From: Lachnospiraceae bacterium | Lineage (GTDB): Bacteria > Bacillota > Clostridia > Lachnospirales > Lachnospiraceae | NCBI GenBank assembly: GCA_021199235.1 | Contig: JAJQIL010000072.1 | Coordinates: 1,806 to 65,805 of the forward strand | Length of the DNA stretch: 64,000 bases | Reading direction: 5' to 3' | Part shown: in pieces, positions 7,332 through 59,947 of the stretch | Numbering within the stretch: the first letter of the stretch is position 1 | Layout: every line of letters begins with the position of its first letter | The notes under the pieces: model-generated | Told to the model about the DNA's origin: nothing | Databases searched by the model: none | Seen by the model: the letters and a program-made list of their open reading frames with translations, nothing else | Made by a program: the position numbers and the translations under genes

Positions 7332-7409
7332 GGATACCCGCGCCATGCAAATCGTCCTGCGGACGATGGGCGCGGGCTGCGTCCCCCGGTTTCGGTGGAA
7401 ACCGGGGAC
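7332..7409 (+). repeat. Family-1 double-hairpin palindromic element, copy A
   Basis: GGATA CCCGCGCC ATGCAA ATCGTCC TGC GGACGAT G GGCGCGGG CTGC GTCCCCCGGTTTC GGTG GAAACCGGGGAC; same architecture as copies at 47124, 50093, 51881, 53478 and 57909. Confidence 0.75.
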
Positions 7410-7437
7410 AATATACAATATACAGGTGGAACGGATT

Positions 7438-46987: not shown

Positions 46988-47286
46988 TCAATAAATCAAT
47001 GATAAGGCTGGAAAAATCTGTTACACTAAGGATCAATACAACGGATAAACACAGCGGGGATGCTGTGGCAGAGGCAATCGAGTCGATACATCAGTCTTCT
47101 GCGGCGCATCTGTTTTACGATAAGGAAAGCTGCGCAATATAAAATCGCTGCGCGATTGTATATCTCGTACGAAGTGCGGGATGCCCACGCCCCACGATCG
47201 GAGATTGGGGGCATACCCGGCGAGGGGCGCGGCCTTCGTCCATACTCGCTGCACGAGTACGGACATGTAATGAGCAGGCACTTCGA
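46988..47286 (+). pseudogene. Internally deleted duplicate of 48985-50187
   Basis: High similarity to 48985-49059 joined at GGATG to 50027-50187. Confidence 0.85.
47124..47267 (+). mobile_element. Family-1 element copy B with a 68-bp nested insert, flanked by TAA/TAA
   Basis: Near-identical to copy C except for an extra hairpin block; TAA at 47121-47123 and 47268-47270. Confidence 0.8.
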
Positions 47287-48995: not shown

Positions 48996-50499
48996 ATGAC
49001 AAGACTGAAAAAATCTGTTACATTAAAGACCAGTACAACGGATGAACACAGCGGGGATGGCTCTTATAAGACGCATCTCAATCAGTATCATGTTATCTAT
49101 ATAGATATTATCTGGTTTATATCGCAGCTTCTCAGTCAGGGCAAAAGCATAGACCAGATCGTGCTGCTGATGCAGAGTCAGGTGATCGAAGAGCTTGCGA
49201 GTGATTATCCGCAGGTAAAAGGCGGGACAGACCTTCCGACTGCGCTTTTTCAGATCGCGGAGTCTACTGGGCGGCAGTTCGTTTTTCTGATTGATGAGTG
49301 GGATGCGATTTTTCGAGAAGCAGCTGATAATAGTCTTGTGAAAGAGCAGTATTTGAATCTGCTTCGGGGCTTATTCAAAAGTCCTGTGACCAGCAGGGCT
49401 ATTGCTGTGGCATATATGACTGGCATCCTTCCAATTAAAAAATATGGAAAACAGTCGGCCCTGACCGATGTTCTGGAGCTTACTATGGTCAATCCTGGGA
49501 ATCTGGCCTGTTATGTAGGCTTTACAGAAGATGAAGTGAAGGCTCTCTGTAAAGAACATGAGTTGAATTATGAGGATATGAAACGCTGGTATGATGGATA
49601 TTCGTTTGATGACAGCGGATCTGTCTATAATCCGAATTCTGTCATGGAGGCAATCTCCATGCGTAATTACGATACGTATTGGGCGAATACGGAAACATAT
49701 GAGTCTCTGAAATCTTATATAGAGGAAGACTTTGACGGAATTCAGAGTGCTCTGAAAAGTATGCTGAGCGGACAGGATGTTCCTGTCAATATACGGAAAT
49801 TTCAAAACGACATGAGCATTCTGAAAAACAGGGATGATGTTTTTACTTTGCTTATCCATCTGGGATACCTGGCATATGACAGGAATACAAAGATGGTACG
49901 CATTCCAAATGAGGAAATCCGACAGGAATTTATTACCGCTATCGAAGACAGTGAGAAACACGCAGAGCTCGCAAGACTGATTGTACGGTCCAGACAACTT
50001 CTAAAGGATACACTGGCAATGCGCGAGGATGCTGTGGCAGAAGCAATCGAGTCGGTACATCAGTCTTCGGCTGCACCTCTGTTTTACAAAAAGGAAAGCC
50101 GCGCAATATAAAATCGCTGCGCGATTGGCGCGGCCTTCGTCCATACTCGCTGCACGAGTACGGACATGTAATGAGCAGGCACTTCGAAGCGTGGTTCGCA
50201 CGGCATATATGGTTTGCATAGATGAGTATGCGGAAATTCAGGAGCTTCCTACCGGCCATGGATATGCAGATCTGGTTTATCTGCCCCGGGCAGGCTCGCC
50301 CTTACCGGTACTTCTGATTGAACTGAAATGGAATGAATCAGATGACGGTGCGATTGCACAGATTAAAGATCGTAAATATCCGAAACAGTTGGAAAACCTG
50401 CGGCATGATATTCTTCTGGTTGGGATTAATTATTCAGAAAAAGATCCGAATAAAAAGCATACCTGTAAAATAGAAAAGCAGACGATCCAAAACAGGTAA
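48996..50499 (+). pseudogene. AAA-ATPase-like/PD-(D/E)XK nuclease protein, N-truncated and frameshifted by an insertion
   Basis: FVFLIDEWDA, MTGILPI, GYADLVYLP...LIELKWN; Walker A absent; split at 50090. Confidence 0.85.
50093..50168 (+). mobile_element. Family-1 element copy C, inserted in a coding sequence
   Basis: Removing 50090-50168 (79 bp) restores PLFY-NNEQALRSVV. Confidence 0.88.
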
Positions 50500-51048: not shown

Positions 51049-51138
51049 TCGCATCCATTGAAAAACAGGCTTGTACATATTAATATATAGGAAAACTATT
51101 TCAATATCTGATCATCAGAGGAAGTGTGTTGTGTGAAT

Positions 51139-51891
51139 ATGAAAGAAAGAATATTGGTCATTGAGGACTCTGCGGCGATCAATGAACTGATTTGTATTAA
51201 CCTGGAGACGGCGGGGTATGAGCCGATGTCATTTTGGGACGGCGATGCAGTCAGTGCGTGGCTTCGTGATGAGAAACGTCAATGGATATCATACCAAAGT
51301 AAAAATAATATTGTCAGGGGAAACAACTGCCTCGATATGGATGCCCCCGTTGGTCCGGTCATTCCGGCCGCCGATCTGGCACTTCTTGATGTAATGCTTC
51401 CGGGAAAAGACGGTTTTTCGCTGCTGCCGGAGCTGCGCGTGTTGGAAATTCCGGTAATTTTTCTGACGGCAAGGGACGACCTGAACAGCAAGATTCATGG
51501 CTTAAAAGATGGGGCAGAGGATTATATCGTTAAGCCGTTTGAAATGTTGGAACTGCTTGTGCGTGTGGAGAAAGTGCTGGCGCGTTACCGAAAGGAATCA
51601 GAAGTCTTTGTGGTGCGGGATGTCGTAATTTTTCCGGAGGAACGGCGGGTGACAAAGGCAGGAAAGGAGATTCCTTTGAAACCTATGGAATTTGATTGTC
51701 TGCTGCAGCTGGTGAAATATAAAAATATTGCCCTCAGTCGCGAGCAACTGATCAATACGCTGTGGGGTGTGGATTTTGATGGTGAGACACGCACCATTGA
51801 TGTACACATTGCGAGACTGCGGAAAAAACTGGATTTTCAGGATGTCATCCAGACTGTGCCTCGCATTGGCTATCGGATTACATGTCCATGA
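51139..51891 (+). CDS. OmpR/PhoB-family response regulator
   Basis: LVIED, LLDVMLP, FLTA, DYIVKPF, RTIDVHIARLRKK. Confidence 0.93.
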   Translation: MKERILVIEDSAAINELICINLETAGYEPMSFWDGDAVSAWLRDEKRQWISYQSKNNIVRGNNCLDMDAPVGPVIPAADLALLDVMLPGKDGFSLLPELRVLEIPVIFLTARDDLNSKIHGLKDGAEDYIVKPFEMLELLVRVEKVLARYRKESEVFVVRDVVIFPEERRVTKAGKEIPLKPMEFDCLLQLVKYKNIALSREQLINTLWGVDFDGETRTIDVHIARLRKKLDFQDVIQTVPRIGYRITCP

Positions 51892-51962
51892 TTTGTGAAG
51901 CAAATCATGGACGAAGGCCGAGCCATCGAGCGAAGCTCGATTTTATAATGGCGAGGCTCTCC
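51881..51962 (-). mobile_element. Family-1 element copy D (supplies the response-regulator stop codon)
   Basis: Near-exact reverse complement of 57909-57989. Confidence 0.88.
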
Positions 51963-51992: not shown

Positions 51993-53438
51993 ATGAGAAC
52001 GAAAATATCAGTCGTGTCAGCCCTGTTGCTTCTGATGTTATCTCAGATTTTTTCCATCTGGAACCTGTATGAAACACAGATGCGGATGATTGGTGTTGTG
52101 CTCGGAGATGAACAGACGGGACTTTCTTCTGACATGAGTTCTTTTTCGAAACAGATTTCAAAACTTGGCATTACAGATGAGCGGTGGATACCGGCTGCGG
52201 CGCGGTCTGTTTTCCTGAGTTCTTACAGTACGGATGCTGTACTTTATTATGATGGCGAAGTGCTTGTGAACAGTACATCCTATGAATTTGATCTGGAAGC
52301 GGGGACTCCCCTTGATGAGAAATATCAGAAATACGCGCTTATCAGTGCGTACAGTTCGAATGACAACATTGCTGCTTATCTTGCCAAAATAAACAGGAGC
52401 ATCCTTTTGATTACTTATATAGAGGAACCTTCTTATGGCTCAGGAAATGGATTCGCTCTTTTGCATTATCGGGATGTTACGGTTATCTTTCGGGAAAGCA
52501 GACTTCTTTTTCTGCGCGGAATTATTATTTCGCTGGCTCTTGCGTTGATTCTTGGCCTTGCGTTGACGCTGATCATACGCAGACTTTTTGTGCCGTTATA
52601 TCAGCTGAAGGATACAGCAAATGTCATTGCGGACGGGCAGTATGAGGAACGTGTTCCGTTGAAGAGAAGAACAGGAAAAAAGGAAGATGAAGTCACGGAA
52701 ATCGCACTCGCTTTCAACCGCATGGCAGAGAACGTTGACGAACATATCAGGACACTGGATGAAATGAATGAGAAGCAACGAATGCTGCTCGGCGCGCTTT
52801 CCCATGAACTGAAAACACCGATGACCAGCATTCAGGGTTATGCGGAGCTGTTACAGCGTGTTCAGCTTTCTCCGGAGCGGCAGGCGTCTGCACTGAACTA
52901 CATCGAGCAGGAAAGCCGGAGGCTTTCACGCCTGTCCGTTAAAATGCTTCATCTACTAGACCTGTCGGATGAGTCCGATATCGAATCGAAGGACATTTCC
53001 GTTGAAACGCTTTTCTCGAAAACAAAAGATATCGTTCAGAAAAGACTGGAGGAAAAAGAGATTTCGCTGCAGCTTATAGTAGATTCTGACCTGATAGTTA
53101 CCGGAGACGAGGATTTATTACTCTCTCTATTGACCAATCTGATTGATAACGCCAGGAAAGCCAGCCCGCAGGGCAGCACCATTACTCTGAGCGCTTATTC
53201 GGAAGGACTATATGTTCAGGATGAGGGCTGCGGTATCGCACCGGAGGAGCAGAAAAAGATTCTGGAACCATTTTATATGGTAGATAAAGCCAGAACACGC
53301 CAGGAAGGCGGTGCTGGTCTGGGTCTTGCCTTATGTGCGCAGATTGCCAGACTGCATGGAGGAAGAATTGAAATAGAAAGTATTCCTGGGAAAGGCAGCC
53401 GGATAGGGGTGAAGTGGAATGTTTTTCAAACGAAGTGA
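51993..53438 (+). CDS. HAMP-domain sensor histidine kinase
   Basis: Two TMs; SHELKTPMTSI; NLIDNA; DEGCGI; GLGLAL. Confidence 0.93.
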   Translation: MRTKISVVSALLLLMLSQIFSIWNLYETQMRMIGVVLGDEQTGLSSDMSSFSKQISKLGITDERWIPAAARSVFLSSYSTDAVLYYDGEVLVNSTSYEFDLEAGTPLDEKYQKYALISAYSSNDNIAAYLAKINRSILLITYIEEPSYGSGNGFALLHYRDVTVIFRESRLLFLRGIIISLALALILGLALTLIIRRLFVPLYQLKDTANVIADGQYEERVPLKRRTGKKEDEVTEIALAFNRMAENVDEHIRTLDEMNEKQRMLLGALSHELKTPMTSIQGYAELLQRVQLSPERQASALNYIEQESRRLSRLSVKMLHLLDLSDESDIESKDISVETLFSKTKDIVQKRLEEKEISLQLIVDSDLIVTGDEDLLLSLLTNLIDNARKASPQGSTITLSAYSEGLYVQDEGCGIAPEEQKKILEPFYMVDKARTRQEGGAGLGLALCAQIARLHGGRIEIESIPGKGSRIGVKWNVFQTK

Positions 53439-54432
53439 GAGGAAGGGGTTAAACTTTAGAGGGAAGGCTCACCAGAACATGTCCCGATTCGTGCAACGAA
53501 TCGAGGACGCAGGCCGAGCCATCAAGCGAAGCTTGATTTTACATGGCGAGGCTCACCAGATTCTCTCAGTCACACGTTGTTGCTTCCTTGGTTTTTTTCA
53601 AAACCCGAGGACAATCATACTTTTCCTTTTTGGCGTAGTGCTCTGCTTTTTGCTGAGCAGCCGTGTCACAGAGGTGGCTGAATATTACGGGACGACAATG
53701 CAGGCAGCGGAGCCATTTATCTGGACATTCGGTGATTCTACTGCAATCTTGATGATTTCACTGCTTCTGATCTTTCTGTTTTCTGACCTGCCGAAGCTGA
53801 CACCATTTACACCGTTTCACCTGATGCGGACGACGAAAAGCCGCTGGCTGATAGCTCAGCTGCTCTATATCATACTCTGCACAGCGTTGTACATTCTCTT
53901 TATCCTGGTTGTCACAGTCGTGCTCTGTATGAAATATTCCTACACAGGAGATCTGTGGAGCGAGACGGCGGTCATCCTTGGCTATTCTTCTTTAGGCGAT
54001 CAGCTGAATGTTCCATCTACGGTCAAGGTAATGGAGAGCATTACCCCCATCGGCTGTATGGCACAAGTTGCGCTGCTGATGTTTGCTTACAGCCTGACAC
54101 TTGGATTTCTGATTCTGCCGGGTAATTTGCTGTTCGGGAAAAAGACCGGGATGTTTTTTGCCTTGCTCTACAGCCTGTACGGATTTCTGCTCGACCCGGA
54201 TGTGCTCGGGAAAATACTGGGGCTTGAGACTTATGAACTCTATCGTGTCCGCAGTATTGTCGGCTGGATCAGTCCGCTGAATAATGCGGTCTATGGGATG
54301 CATGATTTCGGATATGACAACCTGCCGTCCATCGCACAGTCTCTGTTGATCTTTGGAGGAATCTTGACAGTTGGAATTTTCATTTCCTGGCGGGCAGTGA
54401 AAAAATACAATTTCACGTTTCTGGGGACGTGA
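53419..54432 (+). CDS. ABC transporter permease-like membrane protein
   Basis: About six TMs; in operon with an ABC ATPase; carries a 28-aa repeat-derived insert. Confidence 0.7.
   Translation: MFFKRSERKGLNFRGKAHQNMSRFVQRIEDAGRAIKRSLILHGEAHQILSVTRCCFLGFFQNPRTIILFLFGVVLCFLLSSRVTEVAEYYGTTMQAAEPFIWTFGDSTAILMISLLLIFLFSDLPKLTPFTPFHLMRTTKSRWLIAQLLYIILCTALYILFILVVTVVLCMKYSYTGDLWSETAVILGYSSLGDQLNVPSTVKVMESITPIGCMAQVALLMFAYSLTLGFLILPGNLLFGKKTGMFFALLYSLYGFLLDPDVLGKILGLETYELYRVRSIVGWISPLNNAVYGMHDFGYDNLPSIAQSLLIFGGILTVGIFISWRAVKKYNFTFLGT
53465..53560 (-). mobile_element. Family-1 element copy E: in-frame 84-bp insertion with 12-bp direct repeats
   Basis: AGGCTCACCAGA at 53465-53476 and 53549-53560. Confidence 0.88.
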
Positions 54433-56283: not shown

Positions 56284-56290
56284 TATTATA

Positions 56291-56370
56291 GGATGCCACC
56301 CGGCGAGGGCAAGTCGCACCGCATTTGAAAAACGCTTCGCGTTTGGGCGGCGCTCACGAATCGGGATATG
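56291..56370 (+). repeat. Divergent family-1 element copy F
   Basis: Shares GGATGCC and ACCCGGCGAGGG with the insert in copy B; AAACGC-TTC-GCGTTT hairpin; ends CACGAATCGGGATATG-TAA like copy E. Confidence 0.65.
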
Positions 56371-56403
56371 TAAGGCATGGCTAAGGAAAAATGAGGCACT
56401 AAG

Positions 56404-57277: not shown

Positions 57278-57928
57278 ATGGCAGATTATTATATCCAACT
57301 GCACCATGTACGAAAACGTTTTGGCACGGAGGAAGTCTTAAAACCACTGGATTTTGCGGTTGAACGGGGGAAAACATACGGAATCTGCGGAAACAATGGC
57401 TCCGGTAAAACTGTCCTGATGAAATGTATCTGTGGTTTTCTGCCGGTGACGGAAGGGCTGATCACAGTTGACGGGAAGCGGATTGGCTATGATGTAGACT
57501 TTCCGGAGAGCCTTGGGGTGATCATCGAGACACCGGGATTCCTTTCCAATTTAAGCGGGCGGAGGAACCTGGAAATTCTGGCAGATCTGCGCGGATTGAT
57601 CGGGCGAAAGGAAATTACGTCCGTACTTGTGCGTGTCGGCCTTGACCCGGAACTGAAAAAGCCGGTCGCAAAATATTCACTGGGGATGCGGCAGCGGCTG
57701 GGCATTGCACAGGCAATTATGGAAGAACCGGAGCTTCTGATCCTCGATGAACCGTTTAACGGTCTTGACCGCCATGGCGTTGCGGAGATCCGCACACTGC
57801 TGCTTGCTGAGAAGCAAAAGGGAAAAACAATCCTGCTTGCGAGTCATAACAGCGAAGATATTCGTATCCTTTGTGACCGGGTGTTTGAGATGGATGGCGG
57901 CATGATGCGGAGAGCCTCGCCATTATAA
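57278..57928 (+). CDS. ABC transporter ATP-binding protein
   Basis: GNNGSGKT, YSLGMRQR, LILDEP. Confidence 0.93.
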   Translation: MADYYIQLHHVRKRFGTEEVLKPLDFAVERGKTYGICGNNGSGKTVLMKCICGFLPVTEGLITVDGKRIGYDVDFPESLGVIIETPGFLSNLSGRRNLEILADLRGLIGRKEITSVLVRVGLDPELKKPVAKYSLGMRQRLGIAQAIMEEPELLILDEPFNGLDRHGVAEIRTLLLAEKQKGKTILLASHNSEDIRILCDRVFEMDGGMMRRASPL

Positions 57929-57989
57929 ATCGAGCTTCGCTCGATGGCTCGGCCTTCGTCCATGATTTGCTTCGCAAATCATGGACATG
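57909..57989 (+). mobile_element. Family-1 element copy G (supplies the ABC ATPase stop codon)
   Basis: GGAGA GCCTCGCC ATTATAA ATCGAGC TTC GCTCGAT GGCTCGGC CTTC GTCCATGATTTGC TTC GCAAATCATGGAC ATG. Confidence 0.88.
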
Positions 57990-58084: not shown

Positions 58085-59947
58085 ATGAGCAGTGGTATGA
58101 ATACCATACAATACAGGATACTTGCAGCTTTCCTTGCGGTCATGTTTTTTGTTTCTGCCGAAGTTTCTTCCCACTCGATTGTTCTGGCTGATGAAGCGGT
58201 TGTGCTGGAACCGCAGGAAACAGAAAGTCTCACCACCGAACAGAAATTAAACCAAAATGACGAAGACCTCGCCATCGAGCAAAGCTTGATTCAGAATGGT
58301 GAGGCTCTCCAAATCGACAGTATTGGAGAGGTGTCTTCCTCCGATATTCAGGATTCCGTTTTGGAATCTGTAGATTCATCTGCTTATTCCAGCCAGACAG
58401 GAGCAGAAACGGTCTCCCTTTCCATTGATATGGATCATGTGTATGAAGGAATGGAACTATCTTATAAAGATGGATATGTTCCATCAATAAAAGAAAATAC
58501 AGTTTCTCTTGTAATTCCATTTGTGGCAGATACCCCGGTTGAGAATAACCAATTGACAGTGACTATGGAAACAACCTCTGATTCTCCTTTTGAAAAAGTG
58601 GAGTATAGGGAAGAAGTGTCATTACAGACATATCGGTTTGAGTCGGACGGCACTTTGGAAAGCGTGGACGCATATCTCTTTCAAGCCGAATTTACGCTTG
58701 CGGATGATTACCAGTCAGGGCAGTATCCGGTCACAGTGAAAGCGATCGCTTATTCTGCTTCCAGTGTGAAATCTGAGATGATTTGCCGAATGACAGTGAC
58801 CCTGGAATCCGATTCCCGGCAACAGACAGAGGGCGAGACAGAGCCTGATTCGGAATCTGAAGCAGAAAGCGAGACTGAATCCGAAACAGAATCCGAAAGT
58901 GAATCTGAAACAGAAACGGAGTCGGAATCTGAAACAGATTCAGATTCTTCATATGACGACGCATCTTCCGGTACCACTTATTACTCTTCTGGCGGCAGTT
59001 ACAGCAGCAGTTCCGGCAGCAGTGCGGTGAAACATCAGCCGCATATTTTGCTGGAGGAATGCTCGCTTAGCGGAGTTCAGCTTCCGGCTGGGGAGCAGAT
59101 GGACTTTACTGCAAGGTTTCAGAATACGAGTGATGACCAGACGGTGTACAGTCTGAAAATCACGGTAAATACAGCAGATGAGAATGTTGCGCTTTCATCA
59201 ACCTCTTATTATTATGATCAGGTAGCTCCGCAGGAAGTGATCACACTGGAAAACACGATTGCCGCATCAGCTGCAGCTACGCAAAAAGTTACTGCCTTAA
59301 GCTATGCTTTCGTGTATGAAACATCAGACGGAATCTCCTTAAGTGATTCGGAAGAACTGTTTTTTGACATCAGTCAGGAAACTCAGGTTTCTATCGAAGA
59401 TTTCAACCTGTCAGATTATGTGTACTCGCTGGAAACGGTAACTGCGACGCTGGAGATCCGTAATACCGGACGCAGCCCGGTTTACAATGTACAGGTATCG
59501 TTAGAAGCGGATGGACTCATCGCAACAAATACGGTCTATGCCGGAAACATGGAAGCAGGAACTTCCAGCGATGAGACGATTAAGATTTATGTCAGTAATT
59601 TAAACGATAAAGACGAATCATCGCAGGCAGAAAACTCCGATATCGCCAGTGCTGAGACTGCATATGGCTCCACGACAGGGCTGCTTACTCTTACATGGGA
59701 GGATGCTTATGGGACAGTTTACACCGAGACGCAGGAATTTACCACGACGATCGCAGCACCGCAGGTGGTGGAGCTTTCTGTTGAAGCAGAAGAAGAGAGT
59801 ACTTCAAACCAGTGGTGGGCAGTGACGATAGTAATTCTGATTTTGTTTTTCCTGATCCTGATTGCTGTACTTGTACGAAAACTTACAAGAAAACGCCGCC
59901 AGCTGGAAGATTTGCTTGCAACTATGGAAACTTTATCAATCGGATAG
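58085..59947 (+). CDS. Secreted acidic protein with CARDB/COG1361-like Ig folds and a C-terminal TM anchor
   Basis: Signal peptide; (ES/ET)n tract ~58835-58950; IRNTGRSPVYNVQV; C-terminal TM followed by basic residues; RBS GGAGG. Confidence 0.65.
   Translation: MSSGMNTIQYRILAAFLAVMFFVSAEVSSHSIVLADEAVVLEPQETESLTTEQKLNQNDEDLAIEQSLIQNGEALQIDSIGEVSSSDIQDSVLESVDSSAYSSQTGAETVSLSIDMDHVYEGMELSYKDGYVPSIKENTVSLVIPFVADTPVENNQLTVTMETTSDSPFEKVEYREEVSLQTYRFESDGTLESVDAYLFQAEFTLADDYQSGQYPVTVKAIAYSASSVKSEMICRMTVTLESDSRQQTEGETEPDSESEAESETESETESESESETETESESETDSDSSYDDASSGTTYYSSGGSYSSSSGSSAVKHQPHILLEECSLSGVQLPAGEQMDFTARFQNTSDDQTVYSLKITVNTADENVALSSTSYYYDQVAPQEVITLENTIAASAAATQKVTALSYAFVYETSDGISLSDSEELFFDISQETQVSIEDFNLSDYVYSLETVTATLEIRNTGRSPVYNVQVSLEADGLIATNTVYAGNMEAGTSSDETIKIYVSNLNDKDESSQAENSDIASAETAYGSTTGLLTLTWEDAYGTVYTETQEFTTTIAAPQVVELSVEAEEESTSNQWWAVTIVILILFFLILIAVLVRKLTRKRRQLEDLLATMETLSIG

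Follow-up and report, generated by a model that had tools for sequence, protein, structure and literature searches.

The 64,000-nt stretch of Lachnospiraceae contig JAJQIL010000072.1 analysed here (the window, to which all coordinates refer) carries a permease-like membrane protein gene at 53419-54432. An 84-nt unit of a dispersed repeat family was inserted near the 5' end of this gene, between 53465 and 53560 with its flanking repeats. The family is structured and has moved recently, and its copies occupy many unrelated genes in frame. According to the comparison of alleles, the permease insert is very probably translated, and it is best read as tolerated selfish DNA and not as an adapted module.

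Insertion of an 84-nt unit at the permease locus

The 12-mer AGGCTCACCAGA was found twice, 84 nt apart, at 53465-53476 and 53549-53560. The 84 nt between the repeats contained no stop codon, were in frame with the open reading frame (ORF) 53419-54432 and added NMSRFVQRIEDAGRAIKRSLILHGEAHQ, i.e., 28 amino acids (aa). A first, sequence-only reading of the window had described an 84-bp unit with 12-bp direct repeats that was in frame and stop-free, and this description was borne out. The left 12-mer (53465-53476, plus strand) coded for K-A-H-Q and was the original target sequence, which was present as a single copy at the empty sites of the relatives L031, L034 and L035. In one possible register the inserted unit occupied 53477-53560 on the plus strand, as supported by the family alignment, the empty site and a covariance-model match at 53479-53557 (84.5 bits, E 1.5e-16). 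The last 12 nt of the unit (53549-53560) were the right 12-mer, and GGCTCACC inside it was also the conserved 3' end of the family. Hence, the direct repeat pointed out earlier was present, but its right copy was mostly the element's own 3' end and not a simple target-site duplication.

The permease locus was taken from 10 close congeners with 93-98% aa identity, and the junction DNA was read. In G015:C58 (L031), whose permease was 98% identical at the aa level (dS 0.039), the junction ...agagggaaggctcaccagATTCTC had the flanks of the window around a single 12-mer, and the insert was missing. The same empty site, with exactly one 12-mer, was present in L034 and L035, so the alignment with orthologues lacking the insert, which had been proposed as a check, gave exact empty sites. 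The site was also empty in L033, L036, L038, L039 and L028, where the flanks had diverged. In the protein search, the permease homologues were mostly 286-296 aa long and began with MRQI..., which aligned to AHQI of the window just after the insert. The exact empty sites indicated an insertion rather than an ancestral segment. Moreover, a chance repeat was excluded by the empty site in the 98%-identical L031 together with the covariance-model match.

Several derivatives of the unit were found at this single site. The open frame was 311 aa at the empty sites (L031, L033-L036), which had no insert, and 339 aa in the window allele (+84 nt). The G070 (L032) allele contained a nested 39-nt module besides the 84 nt (+123 nt; 352 aa), the G061 (L037) allele had the 84 nt, the 39-nt module and a further 36-nt hairpin module (+159 nt; 364 aa), and the G015:C24 (L059) allele retained hairpin 1 only (+45 nt; 326 aa). 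The alleles with +45, +84, +123 and +159 nt were all open in frame from the ATG that overlapped the kinase gene. The leader from this ATG to the permease core was 19 codons long in the group of the window (53419-53476) and 55 codons long in the L028/L038/L039 group. The 55-codon leader (L028:5932-6096) was unrelated in sequence to that of the window, and both were in frame in spite of the 108-nt difference. Judging from these junctions, the insertion at the permease site is recent, and occupied and empty alleles coexist among close species.

A family unit entered between codons 19 and 20 of the permease gene, which lies behind a two-component system. The target AGGCTCACCAGA already resembled the 3' end of the element, and the gain of one unit length placed the 12-mer on both sides. 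Since the unit comprises 28 codons without a stop in this frame, the permease gene stays open.

Two hairpins were recognized within the insert. Hairpin 1 (53481-53508, plus strand) was an inverted repeat of GTCCCGATTCG and CGAATCGAGGAC with the loop TGCAA, and helix 1 of the family had compensatory changes at 9/10 pairs. Hairpin 2 (53513-53552, plus strand) had an outer stem of GCCGAGCCAT and ATGGCGAGGC, with a tandem G-A mismatch in the permease copy, and an inner hairpin at 53521-53537 (ATCAAGC-GAA-GCTTGAT); helices 2 and 3 covaried. Folding of the single sequence was not significant by itself at this site (z -1.68), and the evidence for structure thus came from covariation in the family. 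The term palindromic, which had been applied to the element, was loose, because the two hairpins differed from each other and terminal inverted repeats were lacking.

The host gene

The permease ORF (53419-54432, plus strand) encoded a membrane protein of 337 aa, with a likely start at ATG 53419 preceded by GGGGTGA (53406-53412) at 6-nt spacing. Its first 20 nt overlapped the end of the histidine kinase gene ahead of it (51993-53438), with the stop codon (53436-53438) included. The gene was under constraint (dN/dS 0.07-0.18 at dS 0.16-0.43), and by this measure it is functional. Its sequence had no match in Pfam, NCBIfam or PDB, and one source labelled a permease homologue as 'ABC-2 family'. 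The top Foldseek matches of the predicted structure were PmtCD, NosY and ABCG transmembrane domains, with a probability of 1.00 and target-normalised TM-scores of 0.62-0.67 but E-values of only 5e-3. Hydropathy indicated about six hydrophobic helices, in agreement with the exporter fold, and an ABC ATPase was encoded in the locus. The host protein resembled the PmtD/NosY/Wzm/ABCG domains in predicted fold, number of hydrophobic helices and the presence of an ABC ATPase gene in the locus, and differed from them in having no sequence match in the three databases. The label 'permease' was reasonable because the predicted fold was like that of type V (ABC-2) exporter membrane domains.

The N-terminal tail contained 13 K+R and 4 D+E. 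As it was rich in K and R, the tail bearing the insert is probably cytoplasmic by the positive-inside rule. In the AlphaFold (AF2) model (predicted local distance difference test score, pLDDT, 75.9), residues 13-57, including the insert, formed one helix that ran into the first transmembrane helix. The 28 residues would thus lengthen the helix ahead of the first transmembrane helix of the exporter domain.

Translation of the insert and alternative readings

The canonical in-frame start candidates ATG 53419, ATG 53479, GTG 53491 and TTG 53533 were all located upstream of or inside the element. No in-frame ATG, GTG or TTG occurred between 53560 and 53637, and the first canonical start after the insert was GTG 53638 (codon 74). 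The canonical Met was replaced by Ala or Thr across the whole clade of the window. Compared with L028, the 26 codons right after the insert (53560-53637) had 9 changes that were synonymous and 3 that were not, and F56, G58, F59, F60 and R64 were near-invariant among them. Because these conserved codons held no canonical start before GTG 53638, translation must start no further downstream than the insert's end. In the empty-site relatives, the sole start candidate was the kinase-overlapping ATG with GGGGTGA at 6-nt spacing, and the sequence AGAGGGAAGG before the old start, which is similar to a Shine-Dalgarno (SD) sequence, was not conserved in L033 and L036. Furthermore, five independent length changes between the ATG and the core (+84, +39, +36, -39 and the 108-nt leader difference) were all multiples of three and stop-free. 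By our own estimate, the chance of five such frame-keeping changes in untranslated sequence was of the order of 1e-3 to 1e-4. ATG 53419, coupled to the kinase gene's end, is most probably where translation begins, and a start at this codon would place the 28 extra residues in the positively charged, cytoplasmic N-terminal tail. The peptides FVQRIEDAGR and SLILHGEAHQILSVTR were predicted to cover or leave the insert.

Some observations weighed against a translated and merely tolerated insert. The 19-codon leader was near neutral, with about 6 non-synonymous versus 2-3 synonymous changes against L033/L036, so that amino-acid conservation is no proof of leader translation. That the module lengths are multiples of three could in part reflect the subfamily itself rather than just selection at the site. 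The family had no dedicated frame, as each of the six frames was open in 49-71% of the copies. The genomes compared were metagenome-assembled genomes (MAGs), and none of the Y1, IS110 and Y2 transposases tested as mobilisers was co-distributed with the element.

The element may be translated and also supply the start. An in-frame ATG from its 5' end (53479-53481, plus strand), noticed already in the sequence-only reading as an alternative start and confirmed here, lay 11 nt after AGAGGGAAGG (53458-53467). Initiation at ATG 53479 (MSRFVQRIE...) via this old SD-like sequence would make the first 20 codons an untranslated leader and the 27 element-encoded residues a new N-terminus. The ATG was kept in all occupied alleles, and the canonical start of the homologues sits just after this purine-rich stretch. 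On the other hand, the 11-nt spacing was long, and the SD-like sequence was degraded in L033/L036 (agagaaacgg) and changed in G061. Empty-site relatives without an ATG there kept a constrained gene and so must use the upstream ATG (GGTGA-N6). Initiation inside the element is thus considered unlikely.

The element may also have been recruited at the permease site. For instance, an RNA or DNA structure formed by it might adjust the translational coupling of kinase and permease, or the N-terminal helix newly gained might influence contact with the ATPase. In type V exporters, whose fold the permease is predicted to share, the N-terminal helix is located at the interface with the ATPase. The site was kept and elaborated in several species by the +39 and +36-nt modules, and the hairpins were strongly conserved across the family. 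Nevertheless, the very close relative L031 (dS 0.039) did without the element, hairpin 2 was lost in one allele (L059), and the family entered unrelated genes in both orientations, which makes recruitment distinctly improbable.

In a further reading, the insert is non-coding and part of a 5' leader, with hairpins that may influence how stable the mRNA is or how it is translated; the start would be downstream, at a non-canonical codon such as ATT 53560 or at GTG 53638. Such a reading accords with a clade that has no canonical ATG and whose start is uncertain in any case, with the nearly neutral leader and with the many family copies at gene borders rather than inside genes. ATT 53560 was changed to ATA in L033-L036 and had no conserved SD sequence ahead of it, and GTG 53638 would drop 26 residues under purifying selection, the five near-invariant ones included. 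The stretch without an in-frame ATG, GTG or TTG and the five frame-keeping length changes also argue against a non-coding insert, which is judged very unlikely. The sequence-only reading had named a downstream start as the case in which its claim would fail; the lost Met, the 26 conserved residues cut by the next start and the four length variants that keep the frame make such a start improbable. The last alternative, an ancestral and immobile 84 nt lost from the shorter alleles by deletion between the 12-mers, has in its favour that direct repeats can mediate precise deletion and that L059 looks like an internal deletion derivative, but it is scarcely credible because the segment is one of 67 dispersed copies, empty sites occur clade-wide including the more distant L033, L036, L038 and L039, the 84 nt are absent from all homologues of about 293 aa, and the occupied/empty pattern recurs in cysteinyl-tRNA synthetase (CysRS) and at the ATPase 3' end.

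The repeat family

BLAST and nhmmer searches over the whole genome gave many diverged copies of the family; 20 full-length copies were aligned to give a consensus, and a covariance model was built. The consensus was (CAT)TA(C/T)ATGTCC - hairpin 1 - GGACGCAGGCCGCGCCA - inner hairpin - TTTTGCATGGCGCGGCTCTCC. The units were about 80-87 nt long and contained two unlike hairpins, of which the second sat within a longer stem, with three covarying helices according to RNAalifold. Compensatory changes occurred at 18/25 pairs of the family structure. On the named structure 96.1% of the cells were paired, compared with 35-39% with slid partners, and 0/500 shuffles reached the observed values. The sequence (C)ATTACATGTCC at the left end was not complementary to GGCGCGGCTCTCC at the right end; no terminal inverted repeats were found in the family alignment, in which the internal hairpins were the sole inverted repeats.

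The covariance model found 67 copies in the 3.47-Mb MAG to which the window belongs, 7 of them in the window. Among the 25 sampled congeners, 7 (this genome counted) contained 22-92 copies, and the remaining ones contained 0-2. The model found none in 16 further families of this order. When all species genomes were scanned for the motif and the matches then checked with the covariance model, true copies were confirmed only in Lachnospiraceae/Clostridiales MAGs; the many exact-motif matches in GC-rich phyla were rejected as chance matches because the model did not confirm them. In Rfam, the window copies had only a sub-threshold match to GA-cis (22.4 vs 34.7 bits gathering, E 0.36), and four other copies had none. 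No description of the repeat family was found in literature searches, and the family is apparently undescribed.

With GC skew and gene direction as references, the copies favoured one strand by 47:20; the two references were fully confounded in this genome. Genome-wide strand asymmetry was strong, with a regional GC skew of 0.09-0.17 and about 90% of the coding tiles on one strand in nearly every 30-kb region. On the modelled strand, about 13 wobble pairs (G-T/U) were counted versus about 3 A-C mismatches, excluding the constant G-U at columns 41-85. The pair counts hint that the structure is read on the modelled strand, which was antisense to the local genes in 70% of the copies. An antisense reading would fit a role of single-stranded DNA better than a role in mRNA.

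In-frame copies in other genes

Every copy was checked for frames running through it, and the status of each gene was assessed by Pfam domains on both sides and by a codon-usage classifier. At least 12 of the 67 copies were in frame inside genes, and 10 had Pfam domains on both sides. Independently, the codon-usage classifier assigned 9 copies to 'both flanks coding, same frame, no stop'. In CysRS the in-frame copy lay between the catalytic and DALR domains, and in an HGD-D dehydratase subunit it was a tandem of half-units. The other hosts with in-frame copies were a CMD-cupin protein, a Pyr_redox/rhodanese/NIR_SIR protein, a GH43 glycosidase, a BD-FAE esterase, an RluA-type pseudouridine synthase, topoisomerase III, NAD synthetase (NadE) and a PD-(D/E)XK protein. 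A copy in a secreted-protein gene of the window (58228-58310) was the eleventh in-frame case.

CysRS of the own genome and of G018 had an 84-nt insert with the 10-nt flanking repeat ATATTATGGA, and the empty site with one ATATTATGGA copy was found in G010 (99% aa identity) and G019 (98%). The CysRS match broke at aa 334-361 in 14/57 congeners, with open frames of 494-581 aa versus 470-484 aa (own gene G000:C5:3034-4540). These 14 congeners included G004 and G006, in which the covariance model found no family copy. The linker that joins the catalytic domain to the DALR domain appears to be an insertion hot spot, possibly through other repeat families.

An open frame through the element was rejected as evidence of coding, since the copy at 7332-7411 was open in two frames yet intergenic. 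A dedicated coding frame of the family was likewise rejected on the figures for the six frames given above, and the intragenic copies are thus in-frame survivors.

Other copies in the window

At the junction of the response-regulator and kinase genes, a copy was located at 51883-51962 (plus strand, 83.7 bits). The response-regulator ORF 51124-51891 ended with ...GYRITCP, and its TGA stop (51889-51891) was inside hairpin 1 of this copy. Downstream, the copy was bordered by ACATATGTCCATGA, which nearly repeated its 5' end, and the SD sequence and ATG of the kinase gene came immediately afterwards. As this copy was also present in L028, it represented an older insertion.

The copy at the 3' end of the ABC ATPase gene (57909-57987, minus strand, 89.2 bits) was an 87-nt insertion. 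It replaced the C-terminus of the ATPase (MMRRASPL before the stop vs MMREITNRIE in L028) and provided a TAA stop. In L028 (10340-10400) this site was empty (GGCATGATG^AGGGAG). Downstream of the copy, the window was without about 70 nt that L028 had between two GTATAGAA repeats.

The copy at 58228-58310 (plus strand, 44.3 bits) was older and partly decayed and lay inside the gene of a secreted or anchored protein of 620 aa with a real start near 58086. It encoded DEDLAIEQSLIQNGEALQI in the same frame as the permease copy (DAGRAIKRSLILHGEAHQI) and was kept in the orthologue of a relative at 80% identity.

The copy at 47179-47265 (minus strand, 29.8 bits) had a nested extra hairpin module ending with ...GGATGCC(A)CCCGGCGAGGG. 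The same type of module occurred in the G070/G061 permease alleles and at 56284-56380 after the DUF6034 gene, and on this comparison the repeat family is modular. A copy in an AAA / PD-(D/E)XK gene region (50093-50166, minus strand, 62 bits) had the right flank ATGAGCAGGCACTTCGA in common with the copy at 47179-47265, which suggests a duplicated segment. The copy at 7332-7411 (minus strand, 62.4 bits) was in the short gap between a thiamine pyrophosphate (TPP) enzyme gene and an epimerase gene, and it was intergenic though ORFs read through it.

How the element may move

The inserted length was 84 nt in both cases with an exact empty site, the permease and CysRS. The flanking repeat was present once in the target beforehand and overlapped the element's own ends. 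Its length was 12 nt at the permease, 10 nt in CysRS, 3 nt at the ATPase end and about 12-14 nt, imperfect, at the regulator/kinase junction. The permease repeat consisted of AGGCTCACC+AGA (the 3' end plus 3 nt), and the CysRS repeat, in the orientation of the element, was TCC+ATAATAT (the last 3 nt of the 3' end and the 5' end). Exact repetition at the ATPase site was limited to CAT, and the target, TCTCCCTCAT followed by CATGCC, resembled the junction of CTCTCCGCAT with TACATGTCC. Genome-wide, the left flanks commonly had YCC 6-8 nt before TGTCC, and the right ends had CTCTCC followed by AT. Head-to-tail tandem arrays of the family also existed. According to these end sequences, the targets appear to resemble the point where two tandem units, or the ends of a circle, meet, and one unit length appears to be gained. 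A circular or tandem donor recombining at a junction-like site, or template switching, fits the pattern; a cut-and-paste transposase whose ends and duplication are fixed does not.

The candidate mobilisers were rejected. The Y1 (HUH) transposase domain PF01797 was absent from G018, which had 53 copies of the element, and abundant in G002 and G009, which had 0-1. For the IS110/IS1111 DEDD transposase, PF01548 was above the cut-off in 3/7 element-rich and 6/7 element-poor genomes. For IS91/Y2, PF04986 was present in 2/7 rich and 3/7 poor genomes and absent from the own genome. An IS200-type tnpA (G000:C43:2440-2838) was about 570 nt from a left-end-like piece, had its own upstream hairpin at 2317-2342 and did not track the element; it was cut by the contig end, and copies 98% identical to it were present in G010 and G019. 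No longer element with the family's ends was seen in these MAGs, which are often without insertion sequence copies.

Comparison with known systems

In-frame insertion of repeats is known in its extreme form from the Rickettsia palindromic elements (RPEs; Ogata et al., 2000), as described in PMC10969869. The invasion of housekeeping genes by palindromic repeats that stay in frame has been regarded as peculiar to Rickettsia, and outside it there are scattered single cases only (PMC10969869). RPEs and the family here are alike in being short, structured, dispersed and without their own transposase, in having a sizeable share of copies in frame in unrelated housekeeping genes besides intergenic ones, and in adding a peptide segment without destroying the protein. 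They differ in host (Alphaproteobacteria vs Bacillota, i.e., Lachnospiraceae), in length (about 100-150 nt vs about 80-87 nt) and in form (one long palindrome vs two unequal hairpins here). Unlike RPEs, the family occurred in both orientations and several frames, had no conserved peptide domain, and its insertion was demonstrably recent. Comparison at the peptide level gave no RPE match for the sense or antisense insert peptide in NCBIfam (E<=1) and no Pfam match in the ORF. The parallel drawn in the sequence-only reading, with a different family in a Firmicute doing what RPEs do, held in view of the missing RPE homology and the share of copies in frame in genes. On these comparisons, this is an RPE-like phenomenon in Firmicutes and not a relative of RPEs.

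[quoted passage not shown] In classical MITEs the inverted repeats are terminal and the target-site duplication is of fixed length, whereas the family here had unrelated ends and flanking repeats of 3 to about 14 nt, and its intragenic share (at least 12/67) was much above the usual one. Like the repetitive extragenic palindromes and bacterial interspersed mosaic elements associated with RAYT transposases (REP/BIME-RAYT) and the IS200/IS605-derived palindrome-associated transposable elements (PATEs), the family was hairpin-based, had no inverted terminal repeats and showed strand bias (47:20) and head-to-tail arrays. Its left motif YTCC resembled the 3' end CTCTCC, as with HUH cleavage sites. 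It differed from REP/BIME-RAYT in that it had neither co-distribution with a Y1 transposase nor a GTAG-type REP motif.

Hence, the permease insert is a product of a new, unrelated family that does in a new phylum what is already known from elsewhere and was observed while still active. More tentatively, and as a possibility that we do not favour at present, the family may represent an undescribed class of selfish DNA, in which a modular hairpin of about 84 nt spreads without a recognisable transposase into essential genes of gut Lachnospiraceae at an RPE-like rate and enters as exact units at sites that mimic the head-to-tail junction (...GGCTCTCC^ATAATATGTCC...). If this is true, the family would naturally and continually supply proteins with new peptide segments, and it would be a candidate for a new mode of mobilisation, for instance by template switching or via a circular or tandem intermediate.

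RPE-like behaviour was thus found for an unrelated element in a free-living gut Firmicute, with occupied and empty alleles at 98-99% protein identity. The nested and deleted derivatives at a single site provide a natural series on how proteins tolerate or use random peptide insertions, and the allele series could also reveal how the element moves. Moreover, the repeats shift starts and stops and lengthen ORFs, and gene calling and protein clustering in catalogues of gut MAGs are affected.

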